From Bdellovibrionota bacterium (GTDB taxonomy: Bacteria > Bdellovibrionota_C > UBA2361 > JBGSMV01): DNA of 55,395 bases. Below are positions 17-36,826 of the stretch, piece by piece. The DNA is taken from the NCBI GenBank assembly GCA_041739995.1, contig JBGSMV010000025.1, positions 1-55,395 on the forward strand, in the 5' to 3' direction. Numbering within the stretch: the stretch's first letter is position 1; each line of letters begins with the position of its first letter. The position numbers and the translations under genes were made by a program. Under the pieces are notes generated by a model. That model ran no database searches. It had not been told where the DNA came from and was given only the letters and a program-made list of their open reading frames with translations.

Positions 17-748
17 TCAAACGACATGCCCCCACAACATAATCAACGCCATACTCCAATCATCCAAGAGAAACTGTAGGCGCTCAACCAACAACGCCAT
101 ACGCGCCATCACCGTAGATCCAAAGTAGGCACCAAAGCACAACATCATTAACCAGCGCCCCGATGAAGACACCCCTTTAAGAAACCGAGACTCGGAACGA
201 ATCGAGAAGAAGAAATAATACATCACCGACAACAACGTCAGCACGAACAGCACATTATTGAAGCTCGCCATCCAGTCTACTGCGAATACGCCAGCGGTAC
301 CCTCTTCAAATACTACCAGCGGTTTAAAACTACCTTCTAACTGCGGAAGCATGTAGTTGAAGAACCCTTCGAATGCCAATCCACCACTGGCTCCAAGCAA
401 CAAGCCAATCACGAGCTTGGCCATCCAGGAGCGACGCCTTGAGTAAATTGTATAGAATAAGAGCCCGAAACATGCCGGGAGTAGGTACAACAAGTACATC
501 GGCTCGTAAGGGACCGAAGCGGTGCCATCTGGGAACCAGCGAACTTCCGCCCCTACCATCGGGTCAATTATCTTTGGCCACACAAAGTTCTTGAGCGGCA
601 ACACAACTCCAAAGCCCGCTGCAATACCGATGTAGAGATGCTCAAAAAGTCGATAGAAAGCATTCTCGCCGAATAGGAACGAGAATATGGCAAGCGTGGC
701 GACGCCACCTATCAGCACAATCGCAAGGTTCCAGCCGTCCATCATCAT
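17..748 (-). CDS. Uncharacterised polytopic membrane protein (about 7 TM), last visible gene of the DUF6754-type operon
   Basis: ORF 17..775 trimmed to ATG at 748, which has GGAGG upstream and an ATGA overlap with the stop of 745..1632. Multiple hydrophobic helices; motifs ENAFYRLFEHLYIG and GRWLMMLCFGAYFG. Confidence 0.8.
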   Translation of the reverse strand: MMMDGWNLAIVLIGGVATLAIFSFLFGENAFYRLFEHLYIGIAAGFGVVLPLKNFVWPKIIDPMVGAEVRWFPDGTASVPYEPMYLLYLLPACFGLLFYTIYSRRRSWMAKLVIGLLLGASGGLAFEGFFNYMLPQLEGSFKPLVVFEEGTAGVFAVDWMASFNNVLFVLTLLSVMYYFFFSIRSESRFLKGVSSSGRWLMMLCFGAYFGSTVMARMALLVERLQFLLDDWSMALIMLWGHVV

Positions 749-1632
749 GCGCTGGCACCTCCGCGCGACCACCAAGCGGCGATATTTCCAAGCAGCACTA
801 AGGCGATCACCACCAAGTGCGCCACGCCGATACCAGTCATCATTAGGCTTGAACGATCCGGGGGGCGCCCGATGTAGGCCTCGTCAAGCATGGCAGAATA
901 TGACGCCGCGCCAGCGACTCCTTCCAGTAGTCCCAACATCTGCCCTGAGTCTAAAAAGATGTAGGCTTGAGGAATGGTGATGGAAGTACAGCCGTGAACC
1001 AGAGGCGGGCGATATTTATCAGATTTGAAAAATTGTAGCAGAGTATCCAAAGTGCCAGTGAGGCTAGAGAACTGCGCTACAAGCGAAACGCTCTGAAGGT
1101 CACCTACTCCCTTAAGCATCGAAAAGCCTTTCAAATCATTACCGCGCGCATCCTTACGCAGATAGGTCAGTAAGTTGTCGGCCTTAACGAAGCCTTGAAT
1201 AAACAGACTTGATCCCACCCGGTAGCCAAGATTGACCCAGTCTTTCCCGTATTCCCAAGTCTCTCCCGGGTTCTTTTCCATCAGACGGGCCGCAACAGAA
1301 ATGGGAATAGACTCAAGCAAGGGCTCAGCCTGAAGAAATTGTGAGAGCACTACAAACGGAATTCGTCGGCGCATTAAATGCTCAAGCACTACTTCCGTCT
1401 GGGGGAAGTTCTCGGCTTTCGAGTTCGGTCCGAAGTCAAAGAACACCACCACTATTTTCCCTGCCTCTGGTTGGAGTGCGTTGATGACGTTATAGAAACG
1501 TTTTGCAGAGTGCATAGGAGTAGGCGCTAGCTCCATCTTAAGAATGAGCGGAAGCATCAAGGCCAGCAGCACCAGCAGATAGATCACTCGCCGGTCAAGG
1601 TTGGCGAGCGCTTTGGAAATCGATCGGCTCAT
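745..1632 (-). CDS. Uncharacterised membrane-anchored protein (TM - alpha/beta domain - TM), probable distant paralog of the DUF6754 protein
   Basis: 295 aa. Basic N-terminus (LDRR) then a TM, a soluble domain (YGKDWVNLGY, GQMLGLLEGVAGAASY) and a C-terminal TM. ATGA overlaps on both sides. Confidence 0.8.
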   Translation of the reverse strand: MSRSISKALANLDRRVIYLLVLLALMLPLILKMELAPTPMHSAKRFYNVINALQPEAGKIVVVFFDFGPNSKAENFPQTEVVLEHLMRRRIPFVVLSQFLQAEPLLESIPISVAARLMEKNPGETWEYGKDWVNLGYRVGSSLFIQGFVKADNLLTYLRKDARGNDLKGFSMLKGVGDLQSVSLVAQFSSLTGTLDTLLQFFKSDKYRPPLVHGCTSITIPQAYIFLDSGQMLGLLEGVAGAASYSAMLDEAYIGRPPDRSSLMMTGIGVAHLVVIALVLLGNIAAWWSRGGASA

Positions 1633-2780
1633 TTGAAAGACTCCGATTCAATAGAAAGCCACATACGAAAGGCCATCACGAGACCCGCAACGGAAGCGCC
1701 GATCTCAATTGCACGAGCTGCCCCGGTACTTGGCACTTGCAACAACCATAACCTTACCTCAGGCAATGAATCAGAAATCCACAAGCCAAACGGAATCTGC
1801 CCGAGCATAACGAGCAACGCCGCCATCATCATGAGTAGCGATTCCATAGAACGCACTCGAAAGGCGCGGTATGCAGCGGCACATATATAAAACCCGAGCA
1901 AAGAAAACATCGCCGCTCCGAGCGAGATGAAAAACCCGTCGAACAACACTGAATAGATCCGGCGCAGCAATGACGTGCGATAACTGGCCTCCTGCAAGCC
2001 TTGATATGCGCTCGCCACTTTACCAAGCGCCCGCCCCAACGCCAAAACCGGTTCTCCAGAAAACACCACCGGCGCGCTCTCCTGGCCCACTCCCTCAACT
2101 ACTCCACCGACTACTCCACCGACTACCGGCAACTCTGACGGAATCTGCACCCTGGCACTCTGAAGCACCTGCAAGGCCTCGACATATTCCTTCTCAGCAC
2201 GATCAAGTAACGCGAGCTCAGCGGTTCCACCGTGAGCCCTCACCCGTGCGACTGCTTCGTCACGCTCATGCTCAATAGTAGGTAATAAATCGTCCAGTGC
2301 GTGGCGCAAAAACTGAACTCGCACTTCAGGGGTACGAGGAGCGATAGCCAAAGCACCAAGCGCCGCAGCGTTCTCCGACACATGCGCAGCCTCATACTTC
2401 GGAACGATACCTTCGGCTGCATCGCTCACAATTCCTTCCGAGAACTGTTTAAGCACCAAAAGTCGCTCTGTATTACGATAAATGCCAGAAGTCGCCTGCC
2501 AATCGAGAAACGTCACCGTCAGCATTAAGAACAAGCCGAACAGCAACGCAGTGCTCGCACTCCAGCCGCGTCTCAAATAGAGCAAGCGCGATCCATGCAC
2601 CATCAACAGGTTAATAAGGCCAAGGGCCAGAGCCATGGCGCCTACTAAAACAAAACCATCTGAAATTTGCTCATGGTATTGGGAAAATCCACTGGCTTCG
2701 GGAAGAACGAACTTCAGAAAGAAGTACAGGCCTCCGAGGAAGGTGACTAGTCGTATGAGGACAACGCGAACCCCCATCAC
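1629..2780 (-). CDS. Uncharacterised polytopic membrane protein with a large helical loop
   Basis: 383 aa: about 3 N-terminal TMs, a ~170 aa Ala/Glu/Leu-rich loop, then C-terminal TMs (AAAYRAFRVRS, GAARAIEIGASVAG). Abuts the stop of the upstream gene. Confidence 0.8.
   Translation of the reverse strand: MMGVRVVLIRLVTFLGGLYFFLKFVLPEASGFSQYHEQISDGFVLVGAMALALGLINLLMVHGSRLLYLRRGWSASTALLFGLFLMLTVTFLDWQATSGIYRNTERLLVLKQFSEGIVSDAAEGIVPKYEAAHVSENAAALGALAIAPRTPEVRVQFLRHALDDLLPTIEHERDEAVARVRAHGGTAELALLDRAEKEYVEALQVLQSARVQIPSELPVVGGVVGGVVEGVGQESAPVVFSGEPVLALGRALGKVASAYQGLQEASYRTSLLRRIYSVLFDGFFISLGAAMFSLLGFYICAAAYRAFRVRSMESLLMMMAALLVMLGQIPFGLWISDSLPEVRLWLLQVPSTGAARAIEIGASVAGLVMAFRMWLSIESESFK
2098..2126. 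repeat. In-frame 12-bp tandem repeat (ACTACTCCACCG x2 plus partial) encoding VVGG-VVGG-VV
   Basis: Seen directly at 2098-2109, 2110-2121 and partially after. Confidence 0.8.
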
Positions 2781-3587
2781 CTACCAAGCCTCCAGACGCA
2801 AAACCTCTACGACGTTAATAATCGAACTCCATCCATAGATTGCGGCAAACGAATTATAGGTCGCAATTACTACGCCTAAGATTATCAAACAGAAGAACAC
2901 CAGCTTTGCTCGGTCTTGTCCGTACAAACTACCGAGTTGCACCGGCTCTTTGGTGAGATACGCGGCCGCGCCGTAGAGCTCTTCGCCTATCAAGGTATAG
3001 TCACAAGTACAGATAAAATAAGGAACTTGCTCAGGTGAAAGACTCGCTGCTACCTGCATGGCACCCACCTGCTGCCCCGCTTCCGCCAGCATCAATGACT
3101 CAGCGGCAAAGGCACCAAACAGAAACGCGGCTCCAACGTTTTCACGTTGAATCAGCCCCATATATCCAGCAGCAAAGGCGAACTGTTCTTCGGAAAGAAA
3201 CACTACATTCTTAGAGTCGAAAAAAGCAGCTTTGCCTTCAACGCGATACGCGTCACGTAAAGTGTCTTCGACCACCGCCACCACTTGGGGGTCATTCTGT
3301 GGGATAAGTAAGCGAGAGCCGTAACGAGCAGCTTTCCTCGCCACATGAAAAAGCACACCGAGACATGCGTATAGGGCCGGGGTTATAGAGAGCAGTCCAG
3401 TAGAGAACGACATCGGGCGGCCGATTTCAGCCGCACGCCCAGTCGCCTCGTCGATGGCATCAATACCGGCGATTCGTCTCACGTAAAGCGGGGCGCCAGT
3501 CCGTGCGTAGCGGATGTACCATATCACTGGCCCGATCAATGCGACCATCAAAAGAAGAATTCCTAAAGTGGCGTGGTCAACTCCCAT
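2781..3587 (-). CDS. DUF6754-like domain membrane protein
   Basis: ORF 2781..3704 trimmed to ATG at 3587 (GGGAG upstream, overlap with the upstream gene). Motifs VRRIAGIDAIDEATGRAAEIGRP, FLSEEQFAFAAG, AESLMLAEAG and CDYTLIGEELYGAAAYL match my recollection of DUF6754 proteins. Confidence 0.75.
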   Translation of the reverse strand: MGVDHATLGILLLMVALIGPVIWYIRYARTGAPLYVRRIAGIDAIDEATGRAAEIGRPMSFSTGLLSITPALYACLGVLFHVARKAARYGSRLLIPQNDPQVVAVVEDTLRDAYRVEGKAAFFDSKNVVFLSEEQFAFAAGYMGLIQRENVGAAFLFGAFAAESLMLAEAGQQVGAMQVAASLSPEQVPYFICTCDYTLIGEELYGAAAYLTKEPVQLGSLYGQDRAKLVFFCLIILGVVIATYNSFAAIYGWSSIINVVEVLRLEAW

Positions 3588-3978
3588 GCGTAGGTCTCCC
3601 CATTTCACTTTGCGCGCGTTCTCTTTTTCGAAGGAGCGCCATGAAGGAGTTGAGTCGTTGGGGGTCCGACAGCACTTGCATGAAAGGGTTGATGTTGCGA
3701 CCACCTACCAAGGCTCTCAAGGTGGGCTCAAGAATCAGAGCGCTGGCATGCGCAAGCCCACGGAGCGGACGATGCATCTCAAGCAGCATGAGTGCCGGCA
3801 TGAGAAGTCTACGTGACTCAATCCAATCCACCATTTTAAGAAGCAAAGGGTCGCAATCACCACTAAGGATCGCAGAAGAATCAGGCGGGTCTCCTAACCC
3901 AGGCGAGCGGATCGACGCCTCGTTCTCTTGAGACGAATCAAAAGCAGCATCAATGGGTTGAAATTCTAGTGGGCGCAT
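3577..3978 (-). CDS. Small uncharacterised amphipathic protein, first gene of the DUF6754-type operon
   Basis: 133 aa with core RRLLMPALMLLEMHRPL...LEP. Its stop overlaps the next start by 11 nt. Confidence 0.65.
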   Translation of the reverse strand: MRPLEFQPIDAAFDSSQENEASIRSPGLGDPPDSSAILSGDCDPLLLKMVDWIESRRLLMPALMLLEMHRPLRGLAHASALILEPTLRALVGGRNINPFMQVLSDPQRLNSFMALLRKRERAQSEMGRPTHGS

Positions 3979-4301
3979 ATCGTTTGCACCAAAGAGGATA
4001 GCGGAACCTTTTCAATCCAGAAACCCACCGAACGGAGCCATTCACGGCTTAGAGTATGCCGACGAGGCTAGTATATCGGCTTAAAAACACTGAATGGCGG
4101 TGGCCCCTGAACACTCGCCGCGACCTAAGGCGCCGTGCTCAATTCGCTCGTCAACACAGAGAATAAGGGCGGGAAATACAAACAAACCCTCTTTGATACC
4201 CGACTTATTGCAGTGAATAAGGGGGGTGAAAAAGAGGGCCTGATATTGAGCTTCCCCCGTGACCTCCTATGGAAAAAGTATCACCCAGGGTGCGCAGTAC
4301 T

Positions 4302-4859
4302 TTAGAAGAATCCCTTAATGTATCCTCCAACCTTTCCGAGGATTTTCGCAATTTTTCCTGGCCCAACGGCTTCAAAAATGTCACCTAGAACTCCGCTAAT
4401 GGAGAGGCCTTCTTCGTCACCCTCCCCTTTGCTAAACATCCCGGTCACAAAGTCATAGGCATCAGATAGAAAACCACCGATGCCGGAGGACTCTTTCTCT
4501 GCTGAGGGTGCTCCCGATACTCCGCCGGCTCCTCCACCCACTTGGCTAGACTGGCTACCAGGCAACAAGCCAGGCCCTGATGAAGCTGCCCCTGCCTGTC
4601 CACCATTGAAAAGCGACATTACCAGGCTTGAGAGTACGTTGACGACCTGCGTCAGAGTTTGAACCAGCGCAGCCACAATGCCCTCGAGCCCACCGCCCAA
4701 ACCTGGCGTCACTACCCCTCCCATCTGAGGCGGGGCGAAGCCAATCGAGGGCTGAGTGGACCTCGTCGGCCAATTACCCATAGTCGGGTCGCACCCCCCT
4801 GGCATGATCGAATTTGCTTGGGTCGACGGCATCGAAAAATTCGGATTAACATTATTCAT
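4302..4859 (-). CDS. Orphan Gly/Ser-rich low-complexity protein with amphipathic helices (harpin-like composition)
   Basis: Strong SD GGAGGA just before ATG at 4859. Helices LEGIVAALVQTLTQVVNVLSSLVMSLF and ISGVLGDIFEAVG...ILGKVGGYIKGFF; no Sec signal. Confidence 0.75.
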   Translation of the reverse strand: MNNVNPNFSMPSTQANSIMPGGCDPTMGNWPTRSTQPSIGFAPPQMGGVVTPGLGGGLEGIVAALVQTLTQVVNVLSSLVMSLFNGGQAGAASSGPGLLPGSQSSQVGGGAGGVSGAPSAEKESSGIGGFLSDAYDFVTGMFSKGEGDEEGLSISGVLGDIFEAVGPGKIAKILGKVGGYIKGFF

Positions 4860-5010
4860 AATTCCTCCAATGTCTTTTGTTGCCTCAAGTCGCATTACCG
4901 AAACCCTCTCAACAGGAGTAGGGTCGCGACTTAGGGATTAAAAATGTAACGGCGCCCTCCTTTGTTCGGCGAAAGAGAAGAAAAGTTTCCTCTCGCAGTT
5001 TCTTTTGCCT

Positions 5011-5048
5011 TAGCATGGTCGTGAGAAGCTCTTTTCACGACCATGCTA
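5011..5048. repeat. Perfect 14-bp inverted repeat (TAGCATGGTCGTGA / TCACGACCATGCTA)
   Basis: Arms at 5011-5024 and 5035-5048 are exact reverse complements; no U-tail on either strand. Confidence 0.85.
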
Positions 5049-5257
5049 GGGAGGACAGCATGTCCGACCGCGGACTGAAGCAAAGCGTAAGTACGCGAAG
5101 CGACGCGGATTTCGCGCCGCTCGTCGCGCGAAAAGAGCTTGGAGCGAGGGAAAGGTGCCAATGAGGGCACTTTTCACCAGCCTGTTAGAGGCTATATGTC
5201 GAAGGTTGTGGATCCTGCGGGGACGTCGTCGTCTGTACCTGTTGTGGGCATAGACTC

Positions 5258-6313
5258 TTAGCGTAGATAGTCGTCAGGGGTTTCAGCGCTCGCCCCCGGC
5301 TTCTTCAGGGGGGCGGAACCTAAAGGAGCCTCAGCGCCTTGATTGCCGCGCCTCAGTTGCTCAATTTCACTATATAATTGTTGCAGGTTGAGGCCACGCG
5401 CCCGGTCAATCACTTCCAACTTATATCTAAGCTCCTGCTCTGACTCTGCTCGCCGCAGCCCCTCAGAGCCTTCCGTCTCCTTGGCGAGCGCCACGAGTTC
5501 AGCAATCTGAGTGGTGAGCTGTCGCTCTCGGGAGGCAAAGTTTCGCGGATCGGGAAGTGCCTTCGCCCCCTTCACGAATCCTTGCAGGTTCTCCTGATCG
5601 ACTTGCAAATCATCAATCAACTGCCGCGTACGCTTAAAGTCTTCTCGCACTTCAACGATTCTGGCCAAATCAGCAATAATGTCAGCGTCGGCTCGCAAGC
5701 GCCTCAATTCAGCTTCAAGCGCGTCGACCTGCAGCTGTTGTTCTCTAACCTGAGACTTCTGGAGACTCAAAGCCTCGTAAAGAGCATCAGTGCGTCCCCC
5801 AAAGAGTCTCGCATCACTTACCGAAAGTTCGCGCGGCGAGAGACTCGCGAAGCGATTTCCCTCGGCAGCAATGATAACCGCATAACTCACAGACTCGGCC
5901 CCGCGTGGGACGCGCACCTGCACCCCAGCTCTCCACACAAGCATCCCCTGAGCACCGTCAACTTTAGCGGCAACCTTAGAAACACCCTTAGAAACCTCCG
6001 ATTCCTTAGCTTCGAACGGTGGCAAAAGTTGCGCTTGGTATCGCTCAAAGCGGGGAGCAGCATCGTCCCCTGACGAAACTAGCTCTGCACTAGAAACTGC
6101 AGGTGAAAAGGCTACCAGGAAAAACACTTGCTGCGGCGTAAAAGGAGTTCGGATAACTTCGTCCAGAAGCAATGTCTCGGTACGGTATTCACTCAGCGGC
6201 GTCTGAGCGACCGCAGCACCCACGTTGAAAACAAAGACGAGCAAGAAAAAGCACACTACAAGGTGGCTTGGCACCAAGACACGCAGCACTAAGAAACAAC
6301 TTCGACTTGTCAT
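5258..6313 (-). CDS. Hypothetical exported protein with a C-terminal coiled coil
   Basis: 351 aa; N-terminal hydrophobic signal ending AVA-Q; heptad-like E/Q/L/R-rich C-terminal half; ATGA overlap with the upstream gene. Confidence 0.7.
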   Translation of the reverse strand: MTSRSCFLVLRVLVPSHLVVCFFLLVFVFNVGAAVAQTPLSEYRTETLLLDEVIRTPFTPQQVFFLVAFSPAVSSAELVSSGDDAAPRFERYQAQLLPPFEAKESEVSKGVSKVAAKVDGAQGMLVWRAGVQVRVPRGAESVSYAVIIAAEGNRFASLSPRELSVSDARLFGGRTDALYEALSLQKSQVREQQLQVDALEAELRRLRADADIIADLARIVEVREDFKRTRQLIDDLQVDQENLQGFVKGAKALPDPRNFASRERQLTTQIAELVALAKETEGSEGLRRAESEQELRYKLEVIDRARGLNLQQLYSEIEQLRRGNQGAEAPLGSAPLKKPGASAETPDDYLR

Positions 6314-7494
6314 TGCACGCCTCCCCTTACAGGAGACGCTCTACCGTCGGCCTTAGTCCGAGCAGCTTTACCGCCGAGAGAACCAGGCCTTAAACTACCG
6401 CGTGTTTCTGCGGACGGCTCCACCGCTTGACTGATGCCTCTTTGAGCGCGCAACTGACTTATTTCAGCTTGAAGGCTTAGCGCTTCTTGAGCGCGAATAA
6501 ATTCCTGCTCAAGATCTGCGGTGGAGGTTCCGGCCTGTGCGCGCCGCATGGATTCGACAATTCGCCCTTCCCGCTCCAGCGACTCACGCGCCAAGCCCAC
6601 TAGTCGGCCTTGCGGAGTCACCTTTTGTGAAACTTCAAGGGCCTCTTCAAGCGCTCGCACCTCTTTGCGCTCCTGCTCAAGTTCTCTCTGCGCCTCTTCC
6701 AACTCGCCTCGAAGTGTCGCAAATCTGCTATTGGCACGAGTTCTTAGCTCTTGGCCTTCAGACAACATGGCGCTGAGCTTTTCTATCTCTGCTCGTTGCG
6801 CAGGAAGTCGCTGCGTTAGTTGATCAAGCCTCTCGACCCCTGTTTCCAACTCAGCGCGAAGCATGAGCCATCGCCGCACCTCAGCCGCATTCGATTCAAT
6901 ATCAATGGGAGGAGAGCGGAGTGGCTCAAGCCGCCAGCTGCCTTCGCGGTTCGAACTAATATTTCTAGCCTGCCCCACGAATCCCTTGGCGTCACGCTCT
7001 CCGCCTATCAGCTCAAGCTGCATTTCCCCGTCAGAAAGCAAAAGCGGCAAATACGAGCGAGACGCTTGGTCTCCTGATTCATCTGCACTGAAAAGGACAG
7101 TCGATCGAATTTGCGGTTCCCATCCCGGACGGAGCACCACCACAAACATCTCATCACTCTCAGGGGCACGCTCCACATAGACAGGAACTGAGCCTTGCTT
7201 AGCGAAAACGCCCTTAATGCTTCCAATATAGCTTCCCGGCGGAAGCCATACGAAGCGCTTCCCCGTATCAAGATAAAGCCAGGCGCCAAGCCCGAAACAA
7301 GCGAATAGAAAGAGGCTCGCTAGGATGCGCAGTCCCCAGCGCTTTCCTGAATGTCCGAAAGGCGAATTTCGCCCACGCCGCGCGGCGCCCTCTCTGCTCT
7401 GATCGCCGGCAGCATCAGACCAATCCGAAGTTCGCCCTCGCGCTTCACCGCCAGAAGAAGAGGATGAACCGCCTATATCAGAATGAGATGTCAC
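6310..7494 (-). CDS. Hypothetical single-pass membrane protein with a long coiled coil
   Basis: 394 aa: disordered N-terminus, one TM (ILASLFLFACFGLGAWLYL), a beta-rich domain, then a long coiled coil. Confidence 0.7.
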   Translation of the reverse strand: MTSHSDIGGSSSSSGGEARGRTSDWSDAAGDQSREGAARRGRNSPFGHSGKRWGLRILASLFLFACFGLGAWLYLDTGKRFVWLPPGSYIGSIKGVFAKQGSVPVYVERAPESDEMFVVVLRPGWEPQIRSTVLFSADESGDQASRSYLPLLLSDGEMQLELIGGERDAKGFVGQARNISSNREGSWRLEPLRSPPIDIESNAAEVRRWLMLRAELETGVERLDQLTQRLPAQRAEIEKLSAMLSEGQELRTRANSRFATLRGELEEAQRELEQERKEVRALEEALEVSQKVTPQGRLVGLARESLEREGRIVESMRRAQAGTSTADLEQEFIRAQEALSLQAEISQLRAQRGISQAVEPSAETRGSLRPGSLGGKAARTKADGRASPVRGGVQ

Positions 7495-7501: not shown

Positions 7502-8281
7502 TTATTCCCGTATTACTTTTGCTGGCGATCCTGCTACCACCGCTCCGGCCGGCACATCAGAACGCACCAGACTGTGAGCACCAACAATGGCCCCTTCTCC
7601 TATCGAGACCCCGTCAAGAATGGTAGTGCGCGCCCCAATCCAGGCATTCTTGCCAATAGTAACTCCACCCTTAATCTCCATCGGTCGCTCGATGAGCGGA
7701 GTTGTGTGGTCGCCTTCTTGATGATTGCCAGGCCCAATATAACAGTAGGCTGCTATCAGCACACTCTCATGAATCTCAATGCGAGACTGAGTCGCAATGC
7801 GACAATATGAGCCAATATTAACGCCTCGATGCGCCACAATCGCGCCGCCCTTGGCAGCAAGCGTAGTAAAACGCCCCACACTTACGAAATCTTCAAGGGT
7901 CAGAGATGCTCCGTTTCCACGCGCATCCAACACAGCAGAATCGTCAACCAGGACCTTTTTCCCAAAAGTAATAGAGCGAGGATTACGCAGTACCACCCCA
8001 CGACCGATGGCAGGGCGCCCTCCGCATTGCCGGAACATGGTGGGATAGAGCGTCGAACGCAATGCAAATCCGAGCAATCCGGGTAAGTTCGTTCCGAGAA
8101 AAGTACAAAGCTCAAACCAGATAAGAAATGGAATTGATTGATTGCCTACTGTTATCTCCCGATAGAGCGACAGCGGGGATTCAAGTCCAGCGATTACATG
8201 TCTCTGTTGCGGAGTAATAGACGGAGCTGCATTAGGGCTGCCGACCCCCGGGCTCAACTCTTTCTCTCGGGTCTGCGTCAT
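7502..8281 (-). CDS. Left-handed beta-helix (hexapeptide repeat) O-acyltransferase
   Basis: Hexapeptide repeats and C-terminal GVTIGKNAWIGARTTILDGVSIGEGAIVGAHSLV...AGSPAKVIR. Start taken at ATG 8281 (ATGA overlap, GGAGAGG upstream). Confidence 0.9.
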   Translation of the reverse strand: MTQTREKELSPGVGSPNAAPSITPQQRHVIAGLESPLSLYREITVGNQSIPFLIWFELCTFLGTNLPGLLGFALRSTLYPTMFRQCGGRPAIGRGVVLRNPRSITFGKKVLVDDSAVLDARGNGASLTLEDFVSVGRFTTLAAKGGAIVAHRGVNIGSYCRIATQSRIEIHESVLIAAYCYIGPGNHQEGDHTTPLIERPMEIKGGVTIGKNAWIGARTTILDGVSIGEGAIVGAHSLVRSDVPAGAVVAGSPAKVIRE

Positions 8282-8883
8282 ACCTCTCCTGCTTCCATGC
8301 GATACGGACGCACACACTGCAAGAACCGCTGCGCTCGCTCGAGAGCAATAACACTCATCGCATCTGTAATGTCGCCTCTACGAACCATCGCAACCGCATC
8401 ATCTAGCGTTTCATGACGGATAGAAAGCACTTCCGTTACGTCTGGGCATGCGTCCGTTTTGGTAAGTTCCCACGCCAAAAACAGCACCGCACGCTCATTG
8501 GTAAAGGAGTTGCTCAAGTGCACCTCGGGACCAAGCTGCATGACTTGCTGAGCGACTAATCCGGCTTCCTCTCGAAGCTCTCGACGAACTGCATCAATTG
8601 CAGCCTCGTCCTTGTGGGCTGCCCCTTCGACAATCTCCCAAGAATATCCTTGGGTAGGGTAGCGATATTGCCCCACCAATACCACCTGACCCCGCTTGCC
8701 AAGCGCCACCACTCCGGTTGCAACTGCTGTTTCAACAACTCCGTATATTCCAGGCTCGCCGTTCGGACAGCGCACCTGGTCTTCACGCACCCGAATCCAG
8801 GCATTCTCGTATACACACTTAGACGAAAGAGTAGTCCAGGGATTCTCCGTGGAGGCTGGTTTCTCTGATGGAAGCTGATTCAT
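8278..8883 (-). CDS. Nudix hydrolase (ADP-ribose pyrophosphatase-like)
   Basis: Nudix box G-AAHKD-E-AAIDAVR-RELREEAG, preceded by QYRYP...WEI. Confidence 0.9.
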   Translation of the reverse strand: MNQLPSEKPASTENPWTTLSSKCVYENAWIRVREDQVRCPNGEPGIYGVVETAVATGVVALGKRGQVVLVGQYRYPTQGYSWEIVEGAAHKDEAAIDAVRRELREEAGLVAQQVMQLGPEVHLSNSFTNERAVLFLAWELTKTDACPDVTEVLSIRHETLDDAVAMVRRGDITDAMSVIALERAQRFLQCVRPYRMEAGEV

Positions 8884-8933
8884 GAACTAAACTTTTACTG
8901 GCGTGAAGCTTTTACCGGTGTGAAGTTGGCCCA

Positions 8934-9407
8934 TTATTCTGAGCGAACTTGGTAGGCACTATACAGTGGAATATTATCCAGCAAAGGCTCACCTTGGGAG
9001 CGATCAACCACGCACACGACTCCCACCACAATAGCACCAAGGGCACGCAGCTTCGTGACCGCCTCAAGCGCACGGGACTGCGTGAACACCACATCATCGG
9101 CTATAAGCACACGTTTTCCTGAGATAGACGCACCCCACAACACGCCGTCGGTCTGTAGAATATGTACCTGCTTTCCTCCGGCGACTGCCGAGGCGAACAG
9201 AATGCCGTCATATGCAAGACCAACGACTGCATCAAAGGTGTGCTCGTCGAGATCTCCTGCCGCCTGAGCAGCAAGACGAGAAAGATCATTAGGCGACAGT
9301 CGAGAACAGTCAAAGAAGACCGGACTAGTTCTGCCATCCGGGAGCATGCGCGGCGGATCGCAGCGCACCGTGATTAGATCAATCAAAGCCCGAGTTGTTT
9401 CGTCCAT
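8934..9407 (-). CDS. Type I phosphoribosyltransferase-fold protein, degenerate orotate PRTase (PyrE)-like
   Basis: LPDGRTSPVFFD hood, VLIADDVVFTQS PRPP-loop variant, VVCVVDR; GAGG upstream. Confidence 0.7.
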   Translation of the reverse strand: MDETTRALIDLITVRCDPPRMLPDGRTSPVFFDCSRLSPNDLSRLAAQAAGDLDEHTFDAVVGLAYDGILFASAVAGGKQVHILQTDGVLWGASISGKRVLIADDVVFTQSRALEAVTKLRALGAIVVGVVCVVDRSQGEPLLDNIPLYSAYQVRSE

Positions 9408-9569
9408 GCTACAAACACCTCACCCACTAAATCGAGTGTTAGCTCGCCCGCGTACGACGGAAAAGCTCTATGCGAGCGCATATCATTTTTAGGAGGCTCC
9501 CGAAGGGAATAATAACATGCGATGAGAAGAATGGCAGGCCTAAGTCTCTGATTGGGCTTGCAAACGCTA

Positions 9570-10721
9570 CTAATTAGCGTCGACCTGCATCTTGGGGCTT
9601 ACCGCGGCCGGTTCCGCCTTGGAGCTCTTTGATTTGGAGCCTTTGCCCTCAAATCCGCCCTCTTCAACCAGCTTTACTCGAAGCCGGAGATTATTGGCAC
9701 TATCCGCATTTGCGAGAGCTTCTTCAAGTGAGATTTGCCCAGAACGATAGAGGTCAAACAGCGCTTGGTCGAAGGTTTGCATACCAAGATTCGTGCTCTT
9801 CTCCATCGCCTCTTTGATCTCTGAAATCTGCGCTTTATGAATAAGATCCTTCACGCGCGGGCTATCAAGCAGCACTTCAATCGCCGCTACTCGACCGCCA
9901 TCCACTCTTCGTATCAGTCGCTGACTGATAATAGCCCGGAGATTGAGGCTAAGCTGCAAGTAAATCTGGGCGTGCCGTTCAGGTGGGAAGAAGTTCATTA
10001 TTCTTTCCATGGCCTGGTTGGCATTATTGCTGTGCAGTGTCGCAAGACATAAGTGTCCTGTCTCAGCAAAAGTAATGGCGGCTTCCATAGTTTCAGTGGT
10101 ACGAATTTCACCGATCAGCACCACGTCGGGCGCTTGGCGCAAAGCATTCTTCAGTGCAGACTCGTAGCTTTCGGTATCAAGCCCAATTTCTCGCTGAGTC
10201 ACCAGTGACTTTTTGTGCGCATGAATGAATTCGATAGGATCTTCGATAGTAATAATGTGCCCAGCGCTATGCTGATTACGATAGTCAATCATGGCGGCAA
10301 GTGAGGTGGATTTTCCGGAACCGGTAGCACCAACCAGCATCACCAAACCACGCTTGGTCATTGAAACATCTTTGACCACTTGAGGAAGTGCCAAATCGTC
10401 GATAGTGGCAATGTGGCTCTTGATCTGACGAATCACAATGCCGAGGGAACCACGCTGGCGAAATACGTTAACTCGAAAGCGCCCAAGCGCAGGATAAAAG
10501 AGTGCAAGGTTTTGTTCGTTGAACTGGTAGAACTCCTTCTGCTGCCGGTCGTTCATGATACCGTTTGCCACTGCCTCAGTATCCGTCGCCAGCAAACAGT
10601 GCGTTCCCGCGGGCCGCACCACTCCGTTGATTCGATACATAGGAGGGCTGTCCACCGTCAGATACAGATCTGAGGCATCATGCTCAACCATAACTGAGAG
10701 AAGTTTTGCGACATCAAGCAT
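9570..10721 (-). CDS. pilU: Type IV pilus retraction ATPase PilU
   Basis: Walker A GATGSGKS, TIEDPIE, LIGEIR, TLHSNNANQAMERI; directly downstream of pilT. Confidence 0.92.
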   Translation of the reverse strand: MLDVAKLLSVMVEHDASDLYLTVDSPPMYRINGVVRPAGTHCLLATDTEAVANGIMNDRQQKEFYQFNEQNLALFYPALGRFRVNVFRQRGSLGIVIRQIKSHIATIDDLALPQVVKDVSMTKRGLVMLVGATGSGKSTSLAAMIDYRNQHSAGHIITIEDPIEFIHAHKKSLVTQREIGLDTESYESALKNALRQAPDVVLIGEIRTTETMEAAITFAETGHLCLATLHSNNANQAMERIMNFFPPERHAQIYLQLSLNLRAIISQRLIRRVDGGRVAAIEVLLDSPRVKDLIHKAQISEIKEAMEKSTNLGMQTFDQALFDLYRSGQISLEEALANADSANNLRLRVKLVEEGGFEGKGSKSKSSKAEPAAVSPKMQVDAN

Positions 10722-10747
10722 AGCGTTTTCCCCTGGGCGTCAATCCT

Positions 10748-11845
10748 TTAGCGCCGAGCTCCCAGTGCTCCAGATTTCGACCCGTTTTTTGACTGCGCCT
10801 GATCGAATTCCTTAAACATATCTGGATTCCCAGTTTTCTCGATGGCGGTGTCGCGAGATATCAAATTGCGATCAACCAGCTCACGAAGATGCATTTCAAG
10901 CGTTTGCATTCCGACGTTCTGAGAAGTCTGCATTACACTAGGAATCTGGTGGATCTTGCCTTCGCGGATAAGGTTACGAACGGCCGTCGTACCAATCAGA
11001 ATTTCAAGGGCCGCGACGCGCCCTCCACCAATTTTCTTACACAATGTTTGGGTAATAATGGCCTGGATTGATTCAGACAACATCGCTCGCACTTGAGCTT
11101 GTTGATTGGGCGGAAACACATCAATGATACGATCCACAGTCTTTGGCGCGCTGGAAGTATGCAGGGTTCCAAACACCAAGTGGCCTGTCTCTGCCGCAGT
11201 CAACGCAAGCTGAATGGTCTCAAGATCTCTCATTTCACCGACTAGTACGATGTCGGGATCTTCGCGCAACGCAGCTCGAAGTGCGTTATTAAAGGAGTTC
11301 GTGTGCGGTCCCACTTCACGCTGATTGACTAAGCAGCGCTTTGAGCGATGTACGAATTCTATCGGATCCTCAATGGTGAGAATATGCCCCTCGAGCTCCT
11401 CATTGATAAGGTCAATCATTCCCGCCAATGTGGTAGACTTTCCTGAACCGGTCGGACCGGTCACAAGCACGAGGCCTTTTTCTTTACGCGACACGTCAGC
11501 GAGCATCGCGGGCATATGGAGTTCTTGTAGCGAAAGGATCTTCGTTGGAATTTTTCTAAAAACTCCGCCTAGGCCTCGATTCTGCCTAAATACGTTGACA
11601 CGAAATCGGGCGATCTCACCAAGCTGCATGGAGAAATCGATGTCGTTGAATTCTTCGAATACTTTTCGCTGAGAATCCCCCATGATGTCATAGAGCATCG
11701 AGTGCGTTTGCTCTGGAGTGAGAGCGGGAGCCTTGATCTTCTTGACGTCCCCGTGCACACGAATCATCGGGGGCTCCCCCGCGCTGATGTGCAAATCAGA
11801 TGCGTCTTGTTGATATGCGAATTGAAGTAACTGCGCGATGTCCAT
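10748..11845 (-). CDS. pilT: Type IV pilus retraction ATPase PilT
   Basis: MDIAQLL start (ATG 11845), ASDLH, Walker A GPTGSGKS, ALREDPD, His boxes and the AVRNLIRE PilT signature. Confidence 0.95.
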   Translation of the reverse strand: MDIAQLLQFAYQQDASDLHISAGEPPMIRVHGDVKKIKAPALTPEQTHSMLYDIMGDSQRKVFEEFNDIDFSMQLGEIARFRVNVFRQNRGLGGVFRKIPTKILSLQELHMPAMLADVSRKEKGLVLVTGPTGSGKSTTLAGMIDLINEELEGHILTIEDPIEFVHRSKRCLVNQREVGPHTNSFNNALRAALREDPDIVLVGEMRDLETIQLALTAAETGHLVFGTLHTSSAPKTVDRIIDVFPPNQQAQVRAMLSESIQAIITQTLCKKIGGGRVAALEILIGTTAVRNLIREGKIHQIPSVMQTSQNVGMQTLEMHLRELVDRNLISRDTAIEKTGNPDMFKEFDQAQSKNGSKSGALGARR

Positions 11846-12175
11846 GCAAAGATGCGCCCTCAAGAGAACTGTTGATGACCGATACGATCTCCTGAGAGTC
11901 CTATCGGCAGGCACTCTCTAGAAATGAATGGGTAAGCGGTGGAAAACTGAGTTTGAAAGCGCGGTTATATGCTCGAGAGCCCTCAAGACTGGCTATTGGT
12001 CAATCTACCATGCTGAGCCCACACTTTTCCCCCGCAAACACCGGGTTGAATCACCAATTTAGGAGAACTTCCTAGCTTTTGGGGAGCGCTGGGACGATTC
12101 AGGCGACGCCCACGGCCCCTCCCCCTCGAGCATGGAATCACGAGACTAGGGGATTCTTCTAGACCATGTTTCTAA

Positions 12176-18594: not shown

Positions 18595-20970
18595 TTGGGC
18601 TTTGGTTGCACTGATCTGTCAGAACCCGTGAACGGTTACGCTTGTTCAAACACTTCAGTGTCGGACCCTACTGTGAGCGATTCTTCGACAAATTCCCCCT
18701 CCATCACCGCTCCAGTCACTGGCTGGGCAACTCACCTGTTTTCAGCAGCCATCTCGCTCGTCCTATTTGGATTACTGACCAGCACAGCCCGCGTGTGGCA
18801 ATCTAACGGGCCGCTTCTGATCCCGTCTGGATCCTACACCTTACTGCCAGCGCTCGTGTTGCTTGGGCTCGCCTTGTTCATTCGTCGGCGCTCTCCGCAA
18901 CGACTCTCCCTTAGCCCTGAGGGTTTCTCACTCGGACTCTTACTCTTGTTCGTGAGTGATTGGTTCGATCGAAGTTATAATTTCTTTCCTAATCCTTCGG
19001 TACGAGGAGAGATTCTACTTGGTGCTCTGATCTTTGCGCTTCTACCCGCACGCTTTCGGTACAAGACGATAATCGCCGCCCTTCCGCTATCGATTCTACT
19101 TCTTGCGGGCGTTTTTCTGTCTGAGAGTCAAGGACGGCTGCTGTTCTCGGACGACCATCCTTCTTTTCTCCTGCGCCTGGCGTTACTTCGCGAACAGTTC
19201 CCAAAAATCCCTTTCTACTATCCATTTTGGAACGCTGGCCTTGATGCCAGAGACTTCTTTGCCACCGGCTCTCTTGGTGTTTTTCTTCTCTTCTCCCCCG
19301 TCATCTATCTCGCCGGACTCTCGAACCTGCTCGCAGGCCCGCTCTATAATATTCTGGTAGCCACGCTTCTGTTTGTGGTCGTGCCCATGTCCACGTTTTG
19401 GGCTGCTCGCTTCGAAGGACTTAAACCTATTGGCCAGGTCACCAGCGGCATTCTCTCATTATGTCTTGGCCTGGTGTGGTACCGCTGGGCACTCAAATAC
19501 GGAACCATGGGCTTTGTACTGGCCGCTGCGCTTACTCCCTTAAACTTCTCGCTGGCCTTGAGCCTGCTTGATTTGGAGCTTAGAAAGCCGTGGCGTAAAG
19601 CTCTCCTGTTTGTAGTCACCAGCTCTCTGATGCTGTTCTGGAGTCCTTCTGGGTTAGTCTTCGTCCCAGTCATTCTGACAGCTCTGGTGGTGGTCGCACG
19701 ACGCGTCCTTGCGGGGCATAGAAAACCTTTGGCAACGCCTACCCTTGTCGCGGGGGCTTTGCTTATCGCCATCAACATTCCTTGGATGAGTCTCTTCTGG
19801 TCAGTTTCAAATGTCGGGCGCTTCCTTGAGAGCTCTTCCGCTACGCCGACCACCGCTTCGTACTCCCAAGCTGCCGCCCCTGCCGACACTGCACCGCTCA
19901 GCAGCGCCTCACTAGACGCCCCTTCGCGCGAAGTCCCAGCCGCAAATGCGCATCGGGGAACACGACACCGCGAGGGCAAGATAGACTTGCAAAAGAGCAT
20001 GTCACTCATTCGCGAAAAGGCTTTCTCGACTAACCCACTTTTGATTTTCCTCGCGATTCCAGGGTTCTTACTCCTCAGAAAGCGTTCCATGTACACCTTG
20101 CTCACTACTAGCGCGTGGTTGATTTTTCTCGGCGCAATACTAGTGCCACTTAAACCTCAACTAGAACTTGACAGAATGCTGGTGGTTTTAAGCATGTTGC
20201 TGTGCCTTCCTGCTGGAGCTGCTGCAAGTGAATTACTTTCAAGTCAACGCCAGGGAGCATGGGTCAAGGCTCTTGTCGCAGGCTTTCTCTTTGCTTCACC
20301 GCTGTGTACTGCCGCCGTACTCTCCAATCGCACGGTGGACCAATATCACTTCGCTGGCCCGCTCGTGCGAAATTTAGCAAATGCCATCAAAGATCTCGGG
20401 GGAGCAGGAAGAACTGTGTTTGCCGGCTGCATCGTCCATGAACTTGAAGAGGGCCACATCGCGCCGCTGACCCTTATGAGTGGCAAAGAGCTCGTCGCTT
20501 CAGCTCCTTTTCATACCCTATGGCGCTATACTCAAGTAATCCCAAAAAGCTTTATGGAACGTGGCGACGCAGGCATTGAGGACTTTTTCATTTTGATGAA
20601 TGCAACCTCGGTCGTCGCGCATGAACGTGAATGGAGAGATTACTTCTCTGCTCGCCCTGAGCAGTACCGTTTGGCATGGCGCGAGGACCGCTTTTCTCTA
20701 TTCGAGCGTGTTTTGGCAGTGGATCAACCCTTCGCTTCAGGCAGTGGAACTCTCGTTGAGCGCAGAACTGCCGGGCTGGAAGTGCGAGTTGCTTCAGAGA
20801 GTGCGGTGCTAAAATACAACTACTTTCCGTTCCTTGAGGCACAAGGTTGTGAAATTTTCCCTGCTCAAGTCGCTCCAGAGTTACAGTTCATTGGCCTAAG
20901 AAACTGCCCAAAAGATACGGACATTCTCATTGAGGCAGGCTCTCCCCTGAAGAGGCTTGGCGCTCCATGA
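18595..20970 (+). CDS. Large polytopic membrane protein, probable GT-C-fold glycosyltransferase (PTPS-related membrane domain-like)
   Basis: 791 aa ORF; true start may be a later GTG such as 18673. SDDHPSF...YYPFWNAG loop after the N-terminal TMs, more than 10 TMs, soluble C-terminus. Confidence 0.65.
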   Translation: MGFGCTDLSEPVNGYACSNTSVSDPTVSDSSTNSPSITAPVTGWATHLFSAAISLVLFGLLTSTARVWQSNGPLLIPSGSYTLLPALVLLGLALFIRRRSPQRLSLSPEGFSLGLLLLFVSDWFDRSYNFFPNPSVRGEILLGALIFALLPARFRYKTIIAALPLSILLLAGVFLSESQGRLLFSDDHPSFLLRLALLREQFPKIPFYYPFWNAGLDARDFFATGSLGVFLLFSPVIYLAGLSNLLAGPLYNILVATLLFVVVPMSTFWAARFEGLKPIGQVTSGILSLCLGLVWYRWALKYGTMGFVLAAALTPLNFSLALSLLDLELRKPWRKALLFVVTSSLMLFWSPSGLVFVPVILTALVVVARRVLAGHRKPLATPTLVAGALLIAINIPWMSLFWSVSNVGRFLESSSATPTTASYSQAAAPADTAPLSSASLDAPSREVPAANAHRGTRHREGKIDLQKSMSLIREKAFSTNPLLIFLAIPGFLLLRKRSMYTLLTTSAWLIFLGAILVPLKPQLELDRMLVVLSMLLCLPAGAAASELLSSQRQGAWVKALVAGFLFASPLCTAAVLSNRTVDQYHFAGPLVRNLANAIKDLGGAGRTVFAGCIVHELEEGHIAPLTLMSGKELVASAPFHTLWRYTQVIPKSFMERGDAGIEDFFILMNATSVVAHEREWRDYFSARPEQYRLAWREDRFSLFERVLAVDQPFASGSGTLVERRTAGLEVRVASESAVLKYNYFPFLEAQGCEIFPAQVAPELQFIGLRNCPKDTDILIEAGSPLKRLGAP

Positions 20971-22862
20971 CGAGACTTTGGCAAACAGTCCTCGCACTAC
21001 TATGCGGCTCCGTAACTACGCTATTCGGCGCTCTCGCTATCGTCCCTACGATCATCTTGCCGAACTTCCGCAGCGATTGTCTCCCCGGCAACGAGGCAAC
21101 CTTGCTGCTTGGCCGCACGCTTGGCGTATGGTGCCCGGCAAGCGATCCCATCACCAACGCTTTCTACCTGTGGCGAACTTCCCCACTCACCGAGCTGCTA
21201 CACCGAACCTTTTTTCAAGACTCCGCGTTTACCTCCTTCGAGTTCATGTTTGGAACCCTAGTCCTTTTCCTCGGCCTTTGGGGACTCACCAGAATATCCT
21301 TGCGCACAACCGATCAAACGGGCGCAACACTTTTTAAGACCGAAGCGACTAGTGTGCTTACTGCACTTTTTGGCGCCCTTTCTTGCGCCGTATTGTACGG
21401 TCACGATCGAACAGCATTCGCGGCCATTAGCTGGTTCCCGCTCCTTCTTACTGCAGTGCTGTCAGCACGCGCCGCGCCTTCACCGATCTTATCGCCAGCC
21501 TCATCGCCGTTCGGGCTAAAGCTCGCACTGATTGTGCTCGCTTCGATGTTCCTATCGTTCAGTGCAAATCAGCTCTCGCTTTTACTATGCGCCTCGGTTC
21601 TGCTGTTTGCCGTATGCCTGTCTCGAAATTGCTCGAAGTCTTCATACGGTTCCTTATTAATCGCCACAGCAACGCTGCTTCCTGCTTTGATTTCCCTGTG
21701 TCTGATTCCTGAAACTCCAACGCCATGGTATCCGCAGGGAAGTCAGGTCGTACCAGATGATGAAATCCCCGGAATGCTGCGCCCTTTCTTTGGTCCACTA
21801 CCCCCAGTTCCATTCATTGATAGATGGGCATTGCGCGCTGACTATCTCTCATCGTTTCACGTCATCTTGATTGCGCTCTTTGCCGCACTAGCGCTTAGTC
21901 GCCGCTTTTCCGTCTCTGCTGCGCGAGTACTTCTGCTGTGTGGGACACCGGTCGCGCTGTTGTTCTTTGACCTTAGAATGCCTGAACCGGTCAGCATTAT
22001 TTCCCCGCTTTTGGTGCTTCCGCGTATCATCCCCAATCTATTTTTTGTTCCTCTTGAACACACGGTGATTGGGCTTGCAGCCTTAGGGCTGCTCATCGCT
22101 ACCGCTTCAGCGCATCGCACACTTGGGCTAGTCGCCGCTCCGCTTCTTGGAGTTATTTCTCTGCTAGTTCTCAGCACTCCCACCACCGAGCCCTCTTCCA
22201 CTCTCGATCAGGCGCACCCAGTATCGGAGCGTCACCAGCTACTGCTGAGATCTCCTTCACAGTTCGCACTCCGTGCCCATCATTGGAACGCGCTTGGGCT
22301 AGACAGGAATTGGATTCTTGAGAGAGAAGATCTCATTCGCAATGCGCACTTTACTAGAGTTTCTAAGGACTCTGCTGAGGTTACCGCCTCTCATCACCCA
22401 GAACTCTCACGCCTCATGATTGACGGGCGCTCAAAGACACGCTGGACCGCTGGCGGTGGCAGTCAGAAGGGCGGCGAGTGGGTTTCGGTGCGCTTCTCTA
22501 CTCCGCTAAAGCTTGATGGCGTTGAGCTGTTTCTCGGAGATTATGTAACCGACTTCCCTCGCGGACTAAGAGTGAGAGGCGCAGAAACCTGTGACGCGCT
22601 CGGTACGCCTGATTCTATAGAAGCTTCTGGTGTAGTGGTTGTTGAATCCCCTGCCTGGTACGGCGGATTGGACTTCACCGCTCAAGGCTATCCGTACTTT
22701 CGAGGAAGACATTCAATGCGGCTGTTCTTCCCGTCTTCAGAAGATTTCCAGTGCCTGGTGTTTGAGCAGATCGGAGAAAGTGATGGCACAGACTGGTCGA
22801 TTGCTGAGTTGCGGATTCTTGAAAGCGGTAAAGCTGATATTGTTTCAGACGCTGATGCCTAG
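20967..22862 (+). CDS. Polytopic membrane protein with a C-terminal F5/8 type C (discoidin/CBM32-like) domain
   Basis: ATGA overlap with the upstream gene; many TMs; C-terminal MIDGRSKTRW...GEWVSVRF...WSIAELRI. Confidence 0.75.
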   Translation: MTRLWQTVLALLCGSVTTLFGALAIVPTIILPNFRSDCLPGNEATLLLGRTLGVWCPASDPITNAFYLWRTSPLTELLHRTFFQDSAFTSFEFMFGTLVLFLGLWGLTRISLRTTDQTGATLFKTEATSVLTALFGALSCAVLYGHDRTAFAAISWFPLLLTAVLSARAAPSPILSPASSPFGLKLALIVLASMFLSFSANQLSLLLCASVLLFAVCLSRNCSKSSYGSLLIATATLLPALISLCLIPETPTPWYPQGSQVVPDDEIPGMLRPFFGPLPPVPFIDRWALRADYLSSFHVILIALFAALALSRRFSVSAARVLLLCGTPVALLFFDLRMPEPVSIISPLLVLPRIIPNLFFVPLEHTVIGLAALGLLIATASAHRTLGLVAAPLLGVISLLVLSTPTTEPSSTLDQAHPVSERHQLLLRSPSQFALRAHHWNALGLDRNWILEREDLIRNAHFTRVSKDSAEVTASHHPELSRLMIDGRSKTRWTAGGGSQKGGEWVSVRFSTPLKLDGVELFLGDYVTDFPRGLRVRGAETCDALGTPDSIEASGVVVVESPAWYGGLDFTAQGYPYFRGRHSMRLFFPSSEDFQCLVFEQIGESDGTDWSIAELRILESGKADIVSDADA

Positions 22863-35499: not shown

Positions 35500-35516
35500 A
35501 CTTCGCTCTATCTATT

Positions 35517-35553
35517 CAGGGCTGAGCAGAGGCGGTCCTCTAAAGCAGCCCTG
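35517..35553 (-). other. Stem-loop in the actE-actF spacer
   Basis: CAGGGCTG/CAGCCCTG outer stem and AGAGG/CCTCT inner stem, 17 nt upstream of the actF start. Confidence 0.5.
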
Positions 35554-36245: not shown

Positions 36246-36248
36246 AGC

Positions 36249-36770: not shown

Positions 36771-36826
36771 ATCTTCACTCTCTTCTTACCAGTCCGCACT
36801 TGCGTGCGCTCCCAAGCTCTCCTGCT

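Follow-up and report, generated by a model that had tools for sequence, protein, structure and literature searches.

A widely conserved, undescribed multi-subunit membrane system with an ASKHA-fold subunit: a possible ATP-driven transporter

Introduction

The 55,395-nucleotide contig JBGSMV010000025.1 of a Bdellovibrionota bacterium (assembly GCA_041739995.1), hereafter the window, opens at its left-hand end with a compact operon of five minus-strand genes, g1 to g5, of which one (g2) encodes a protein of the family DUF6754 (PF20539). The question raised by this locus is what such a set of genes makes together. A sequence-only reading had proposed a five-subunit membrane complex without an ATPase, a transporter, channel or signalling complex, that was probably driven by an ion gradient. 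We found here that the system is real and, as far as searched, undescribed, that its fixed unit is g2-g5, and that relatives encode directly after g5 a second unit, g6-g7, whose first protein is predicted to bind ATP. The mechanism must be inferred; we put the chance that the system is a primary active transporter of a new kind, powered by ATP, at slightly less than even.

Results

A conserved four-gene module

All five minus-strand open reading frames (ORFs) are present without spacers (Table 1), and the junctions are those previously described, with an 11-nt overlap of g1 and g2, g2 and g3 abutting, and ATGA at both g3/g4 and g4/g5. At the g2/g3 junction the stop codon is followed at once by GTG and then by ATG. 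Each of the five genes is single copy in its own genome and, because homologues of all five follow one another in the same way in relatives, the arrangement is not due to chance. The assignment of g2 to DUF6754 was correct: the protein is a full-length member (272.3 bits against a cut-off of 27, E 4.1e-81, model positions 11-250 of 257) of a family with no assigned function. Profile searches of each protein against Pfam and NCBIfam gave a name to g2 alone; g1, g3, g4 and g5 matched no family at E 0.1.

PF20539 occurs in 39 of 41 relatives. Among 78 genomes of the phylum with at least 90% completeness, which are kin and not independent trials, it was found in 77 (and in none of 14 control genomes), while g6 was found in all 78; both genes are essentially single copy. 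In 64 of the 77 genomes g2 and g6 share a contig and a strand, with g6 downstream at a distance of no more than 4 kb; the remaining 13 genomes have them on separate contigs. A distant set consisted of 76 loci retained out of 606 metagenome matches to a g4 alignment, and was scanned with profiles built from those very 76 loci. The order g2-g3-g4-g5 is kept in 62 of 62 metagenome modules where it could be tested (those whose g4 gene is flanked by 3 kb or more upstream and 0.9 kb or more downstream), as it is in 36 of 36 close-relative loci. Twenty-five distant loci extend over at least 15 kb: two or three modules are present in 11 of them, g6 in 13, g7 in 15 and g1 in 9, and no duplicated g6-g7 pair was seen among the 25. 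Relative to g2-g5, the g6-g7 pair is placed before, after or divergently across distant lineages. The g1 gene adjoins either g2 or g6/g7, and where the module is repeated g1 is not; it was detected in 1 of the 11 multi-module loci, where short divergent copies may escape detection. The fixed unit is g2-g5, g6-g7 is a second unit and g1 is an optional accessory. It follows from the repetition of g2-g5 and the sparse occurrence of g1 that the stoichiometric unit of five subunits does not stand, whereas the broader proposal of a co-conserved, uncharacterised multi-subunit membrane system is upheld by kept order and co-occurrence in relatives and metagenome loci alike.

Fusions of g4 with g5 occur in P0271, P0077, P0062, P0284 and P0287, two of them in clusters present on several contigs. 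Named homologues come from Planctomycetota, Fidelibacterota, WOR-3 and Bacillota, and the taxa encountered are bacterial. Since the system occurs in monoderm Bacillota and in diderms, it is not tied to an outer membrane. A plasmid search with g2 gave no match.

By synteny, the operon continues into a predicted ATP-binding subunit

The window is an entire contig (C78), and position 1 is hence a contig end. A TTG overlaps the g5 stop codon, an ATG at 27-25 provides an alternative g6 start with an 11-nt overlap, and both candidate frames stay open up to position 1. In relatives, g5 is followed by a 600-residue protein of the MutL/GlmL family (g6) and then by a 375-residue protein (g7); the g6 of the closest relative matches PF13941 with E 8.7e-120. 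A second contig of the same genome, C41, opens inside g6, at the equivalent of residue 14 in the relative (the two proteins being 75% identical), has g7 next, and carries 3' of g7 the same genes as L021, the closest named locus (g2 identity 78%). This synteny suggests that the operon runs on from C78 into C41 with g6-g7, as had been guessed from the TTG; a search for a contig spanning the C78/C41 join found no bridging contig. Sequencing runs with this DNA comprised four DNA data sets, all from a single study, and no RNA data set among those listed.

Three g6 motifs, D3-C-G-S-T-T, D285-x-G-G-A-T-T-D292 and S425-G-G, are invariant in 22 of 22 aligned sequences. They correspond to the two phosphate-loop motifs and the adenosine motif of the ASKHA (actin/Hsp70/sugar kinase) superfamily. 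Judged by these motifs, the operon includes an ATP-binding ASKHA-fold subunit. The earlier statement that no ATPase is encoded is true for g1-g5 and untrue for the operon, since g6 follows g5, and because of this ATP-binding subunit the guess of an ion-driven system loses ground. In L123 the g6 frame appears broken in two, either through a frameshift or because of an error in sequencing.

The predicted structure of g7 (predicted local distance difference test score, pLDDT, 90) contains barrel-sandwich domains, a swivel domain and a KOW/SH3 domain. The segment 49-123 resembles the barrel-sandwich domains of NqrA (Z 8.4, root-mean-square deviation (rmsd) 1.8) and RnfC (Z 8.1), and the segment 152-296 resembles the phosphohistidine swivel domain of enzyme I of the phosphotransferase system (PTS; Z 9.3, rmsd 2.7, 107 residues), as well as swivel domains of RraA (Z 9.0), rifampin phosphotransferase (Z 8.5) and aconitase X (Z 7.8). 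No His is conserved at 60% or more in a 34-sequence g7 alignment. The model is suggestive of a jointed adaptor. We rejected the idea that g7 is a biotin/lipoyl carrier, the Pfam matches being weak and below cut-off and the domain being without a conserved Lys. Reactivase is absent among the g7 matches listed, which does not by itself exclude a split diol-dehydratase reactivase formed by g6 and g7.

Topology and structure of the membrane subunits

Topology was predicted from alignment-averaged hydropathy and the positive-inside rule, which place helix boundaries only roughly. For g2, membrane helices are predicted at residues 8-26 and 229-247, with the domain between them in the cytoplasm. Its invariant residues are E54, Q135, R148, E163, E169, Q178, Q187, D196, E203 and D225, and C195 is conserved at 94%; g2 is the membrane subunit with the highest conservation and the probable coupling site. 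Many distant g2 homologues begin with a signal peptide and an additional exported domain, the latter being absent from g2 of the window. We presume these domains to be fibronectin-III-like; Pfam named none of them except one Big_9.

The g3 protein has six predicted helices with the N-terminus inside (measured with the short homologue L059 as alignment reference) and, in this lineage, a long insertion, predicted to lie outside, that separates helix 3 from helix 4. The protein comprises about 205-260 residues in most distant loci and 340-380 in close relatives. Within the insertion, a 12-nt unit stands in three imperfect copies (2091-2126, minus strand), which partly explains why g3 here is some 30 residues longer than in close relatives. 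Pfam searches with 73 g3 homologues gave no consistent match, the commonest scattered one being TMD0_ABC (10 of 73), and searches with all members of the g4 and g5 alignments likewise gave scattered matches only and no consistent transporter family. In L103 the g3 ORF has FG-GAP repeats.

In g4, a domain predicted outside is held between two membrane helices. Its AlphaFold2 model (pLDDT 96.4, predicted template modelling score 0.92) has a six-stranded Rossmann-like alpha/beta domain; g4 is a candidate outer binding subunit. The structural matches are generic, the best (Z 9.4, rmsd 3.5, 139 residues) being followed by a Rossmann plateau at Z 7-8.4. There are 1751 g4 relatives among 50%-identity representatives; in the ESM Atlas g4 led to unnamed clusters only and g5 to no usable named match. 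In L094 it is g4 that appears split into two parts, again either by a frameshift or by a sequencing mistake.

The g5 protein, which had been read as having about seven transmembrane helices, has six by alignment-averaged hydropathy, with the N-terminus outside, opposite to g3. N29, E36, G41, F179, M202, F205, G206 and R216 are invariant, and E36, like D225 of g2, falls within a few residues of a predicted helix start. Within the roughly bounded helices, no Asp or Glu reaches 80% conservation in any of them, and no Cys does so in g3, g4 or g5. The MotAB, ExbBD and TolQR ion motors are marked by an invariant acidic residue in mid-membrane; none was located inside a predicted helix here, with E36 and D225 close to the rough boundaries. 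Forms of g5 with an insertion of about 300 residues between helices 4 and 5 were seen in P0273-P0312, several from Planctomycetota. No membrane helix is predicted for g1, in which E67 and P85 are invariant; most of its relatives have about 80-110 residues.

The predicted topology agrees with the exported N-terminal domains of g2 homologues and with an extra linker helix in two of the g4-g5 fusions. The g2-g5 layout is thus predicted to be mirror-like, with the g2 domain inside, the g4 domain outside and g3 and g5 oppositely oriented. Paired opposite orientation is a typical transporter layout. Mean column identity is 52% for g2, 62% for g6 and 53% for g7, against 28% for g3, 21% for g4 and 31% for g5 in alignments of differing breadth, and the higher conservation of g2, g6 and g7 suggests that the cytoplasmic parts work together. 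Searches of the PDB by sequence with profiles of g2, g3, g4, g5, g6 and g7 found nothing below E 0.007.

Comparison with known systems

As far as searched, no solved structure, family or paper accounts for the module. We checked whether the genes map to a characterised complex and found no known system with this gene set, nor any whose defining features they share in full. A literature search on GlmL in a membrane, ASKHA or Zixibacteria context gave no description of this system, and there was none of DUF6754 in the literature searched, which covered few subscription journals.

The ASKHA core of g6 is that of GlmL/MutL (PF13941; NF040745) and Or-4 (NF040744), but g6 is about 150 residues longer and sits with membrane genes and g7. 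The genome's own g6, as read from C41 and so without roughly its first 13 residues, scores 212.9 against a NCBIfam cut-off of 475 for GlmL, 199.5 against 600 for Or-4 and 178.6 against 204 for a third family, and two complete g6 homologues are likewise below the cut-offs. According to PMC4682846, GlmL is a chaperone for the reactivation of glutamate mutase. Glutamate mutase E (PF06368) is over cut-off in 0 of the 78 phylum genomes, in a test whose control set included no strong positive; on this result the client of g6 would not be glutamate mutase; lysine/ornithine aminomutase (PF09043) was also found in 0 of 78, with no match in the controls either.

Several systems resemble this one in part. 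In Rnf and Na+-NQR, two six-helix subunits face opposite ways, as g3 and g5 are predicted to, and their RnfC and NqrA subunits have the barrel-sandwich domain matched by g7. They differ in that g3 and g5 are without conserved Cys, without Fe-S, flavin or heme motifs and without a family match, and in that the soluble part here is an ATPase. The likeness to ATP-binding cassette (ABC) and energy-coupling factor transporters is one of analogy only: a single ATPase unit for several modules, an outer binding domain and an inner coupling domain. However, g6 has an actin fold and not that of a P-loop ABC protein, no dedicated P-loop ABC ATPase is found among g1-g7, and the membrane subunits match neither family. 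The mannose-family PTS combines oppositely oriented membrane subunits with a cytoplasmic alpha/beta domain, and g7 shares the enzyme-I-like swivel fold; yet g7 is without a conserved His, there is no family match, and an ATPase takes the place of the phosphoenolpyruvate-binding enzyme. In PilM-PilN-PilO and MreB-MreC-MreD an actin-fold ATP-binding protein is bound to inner-membrane partners. Those proteins belong to another branch of ASKHA, and the partners of g6, two six-helix and two Rossmann-like proteins, are unrelated to theirs by our searches.

Discussion

An ATP-driven transporter as the favoured reading

Gene content and order, co-occurrence, the fusions, the ATP-binding motifs and the folds of g4 and g7 are established; topology, transport and its direction we infer, as follows. 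The proteins g2-g5 very probably form one complex, which would be a single, mirror-like assembly in the inner membrane, with g3 and g5, six helices each and oppositely oriented, lining the pathway, the g4 domain outside as a capture site and the g2 domain inside as a site of coupling or release. Its coupling to g6/g7 is likely. On the inner face, g6 would dock with the jointed g7 and the small g1, and would spend ATP to reset the complex or strip its cargo, much as ATP-type chaperones of the GlmL family act on client enzymes; it is the homology to the chaperone GlmL that suggests such a remodelling role. One g6-g7 pair might serve several membrane modules. The transporter would probably import a small solute, with peptides or amino-acid derivatives as a weak favourite. 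Module order, multi-module loci, g4-g5 fusions and the co-occurrence of g2 and g6 count for this reading, as do the ASKHA motifs, the opposite orientations, the presence in monoderms and diderms, and an oligopeptide ABC setting in L071 and L087, where the system lies between the permease genes and the ATPase gene of an oligopeptide ABC transporter.

A number of observations weigh against it. The g6-g7 pair is not linked to g1-g5 in G061 and G028, and g6 was not seen in 12 of the 25 long distant loci within the stretch examined. In G057 the module is split, g1-g2 lying apart from g4-g5 with g1 remaining beside g2. In G010 (1.9 Mb, 93% complete) the pair is intact (G010:C3:20401-23595, L135; g6 there is one open frame carrying an insertion) and g2, g4 and g5 were not found, which may mean that the membrane module has been lost in nature or that the assembly has a gap. 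The peptide link is two loci, which may be kin, and a riboswitch search upstream of the operon in the window and 19 loci found none (L111 has one cobalamin riboswitch about 6 kb downstream). The membrane subunits g3, g4 and g5 have no consistent transporter family match and no solved relative by sequence. Near-universal single-copy retention and variable outer add-on domains fit a job in the cell envelope equally well.

The layout looks like that of a two-gene unit duplicated and then flipped, but the homology comparisons did not rise above their controls and these, too, count against the proposal. Profiles of g2 and g4 matched in one run (E 3.6e-4, probability 37%); in a rerun the score was 24.4 against 22.6 for the reversed profile, with 0 of 40 shuffles reaching it, and with the domains only 6 of 60 shuffles reached the score. 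For g3 and g5 the probability was 1%, and 5 of 40 shuffles reached the score. Complex prediction for g6, g1 and ATP with the g2 domain gave uncontrolled scores of 0.26, 0.42 and 0.27 against a mark of 0.32, and counts neither way.

Alternative explanations

The main rival to a transporter is a cell-envelope machine after the pattern of PilM-PilN-PilO or MreB-MreC-MreD. In it, a surface structure would be organised, anchored or powered by the actin-fold protein together with the membrane core, while the outer domains would grip the wall or a pilus-related structure. We consider it unlikely. The variable exported additions to g2, g3 and g5 (Ig-like Big_9, FG-GAP repeats, 300-residue insertions) would suit it, and in this phylum the coiled-coil genes u2 and u3 precede g1, a pilT/pilU-type pair lies upstream, and the core is a single-copy set even where the genome is 1.7-1.8 Mb. 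Yet among the 76 distant loci neither the pil genes nor u2/u3 are recurrent neighbours, g6 falls in the GlmL/hydantoinase branch rather than with PilM or MreB, and two or three diverged modules per ATPase are better suited to a variety of substrates. Domains on both faces of the membrane also bring to mind a transmembrane sensor, with g4 and the add-ons binding a cue, g3 and g5 passing the signal to g2, the g6 ATPase being switched and g7, with its NusG-like KOW domain, as the output; the KOW/SH3, barrel-sandwich and RraA-like swivel folds of g7 and weak RCK-like matches of g4 (Z 7.3-8.2) point the same way. Such a sensor is improbable in view of recurring neighbour clusters without a regulator, kinase or cyclase, twelve polytopic helices that exceed the usual needs of a sensor, and fold matches that are generic.

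We give equally little credence to group translocation or a membrane enzyme, an ATP-fed analogue of the mannose-type PTS in which g6 is a kinase and the g7 swivel carries phosphoryl groups to g2, where cargo is modified on entry. Hydantoinase/oxoprolinase relatives phosphorylate substrates, the resemblance of g7 152-296 to swivel domains of enzyme I and rifampin phosphotransferase fits, and g2 is rich in invariant polar residues, with C195 and D196 adjacent; against this, no g7 His reaches 60% conservation, the swivels of RraA and aconitase X, which work without phosphate, score alike, and no PTS family is matched. It is just as doubtful that g1-g5 are a self-contained transporter or channel driven by an ion gradient, with the ATPase pair a mere neighbour. 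The oppositely oriented six-helix pair, the long loci without a nearby g6, the unlinked g6-g7 of G061 and G028 and the invariant E36 and R216 at helix ends of g5 would agree with this, but g6-g7 adjoin the module across distant lineages in varied arrangements and in most phylum genomes, and no conserved acidic residue falls inside the roughly predicted helices. The original preference for an ion gradient had rested on the absence of an ATPase, and with g6 after g5 it loses that ground. Least credible of all is a function in vitamin B12 metabolism (mutase reactivation or corrinoid import), as the MutL/GlmL label would have it: g6 matches PF13941 and the genome has four B12-binding domains elsewhere, but g6 is far below the GlmL and Or-4 cut-offs (213 against 475, 200 against 600), glutamate mutase E is over cut-off in none of the 78 genomes, and no cobalamin riboswitch lies upstream in the 20 sources.

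To return to the ATP-driven transporter, we know of no transporter or pump that is powered by an ATPase of the actin/Hsp70 fold. A bolder proposal, to which we give somewhat under an even chance, is that such an ATPase drives a pseudo-symmetric four-subunit membrane core that arose when a two-gene unit was duplicated and inverted long ago, that it is shared among specificity modules as a core function of several uncultured phyla, and that the system constitutes a new class of primary active machine alongside the ABC, P-type and rotary ATPases. Although the folds of the parts are known, their combination matches no known system. In the phylum the set is near-universal and single copy; many little-studied lineages have it too, often with two or three copies, and this wide retention and recurrence suggest that it probably does a basic job. 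With seven genes it is small enough for expression and structure determination, and in L046 the four proteins g2-g5 add up to 985 residues. Annotation as 'glutamate mutase L' and 'hypothetical protein' hides it. Were it an envelope or signalling machine instead, it would still be an undescribed multi-subunit system.

Locus features and neighbouring genes

Table 1. Position of the genes of the system and of two adjacent genes; window coordinates unless a contig is named.
Feature	Position	Strand	Length (residues)	Description
g1	3577..3978	-	133	Small soluble or amphipathic protein, optional accessory
g2	2781..3587	-	268, counted from ATG	DUF6754 protein
g3	1629..2780 (alternative start 2777)	-	383/382	Six-helix membrane protein
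g4	745..1632	-	295	Membrane helix, Rossmann-like domain, membrane helix
g5	17..748	-	243	Six-helix membrane protein
g6, first codons	1..27	-		GlmL/MutL-like ASKHA ATPase; start ATG at 27 or TTG at 20
Rest of g6 and whole of g7	G000:C41:1-2977			Other contig of the same genome, placed by synteny
u3	6310-7494	-		Exported or membrane-anchored coiled-coil protein
u2	5258-6313	-		Exported or membrane-anchored coiled-coil protein

The genes u2 and u3 stand directly before g1 in many relatives; among loci L050-L058, u3 is present in 7 of 9 and u2 in 6 of 9, and u2 abuts g1 in L005 and L015. Neither turned up among the 76 metagenome loci of the distant set, and they are possibly lineage-specific accessories. 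Both proteins have a beta-domain plus a coiled coil, and their mutual profile similarity (probability 84%) is confined to the coiled coil. In the window a Gly/Ser/Pro-rich ORF of 186-197 residues (4302-4895, minus strand) parts u2 from g1, although the two abut in several relatives; it has no Pfam match and no homologue in 48 related loci. A promoter and terminator scan of 3900-5400 found none. Further upstream, 7502-11914 (minus strand) holds genes for a pilT/pilU-type pair (9570-11914), a phosphoribosyltransferase, a NUDIX protein and a hexapeptide acetyltransferase. Much of this block likewise lies upstream of the operon in several relatives, and pilT/pilU-type pairs are present in L050, L051, L053, L056 and L058.

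In other loci, a lipoate-protein-ligase-like gene comes directly after g5 (L060, L067, L098, L105, L120 and L125), followed in L105 and L125 by a gene for a 700-residue protein that was not named and a MotA/ExbB gene. Ten loci contain an ABC-type ATPase cluster at some point along their length, the genes being unrelated or part of the host operon. Elsewhere in the window are two large overlapping ORFs of 791 and 631 residues with no Pfam match at E 1e-5 (18595-22862, plus strand), an Alternative complex III cluster encoding a multiheme cytochrome, a molybdopterin-fold/Fe-S subunit, NrfD, ActD and a cytochrome c (34222-42156, minus strand), and a bacterial alpha-2-macroglobulin gene followed by a PBP1C-type gene (45064-53197, plus strand).

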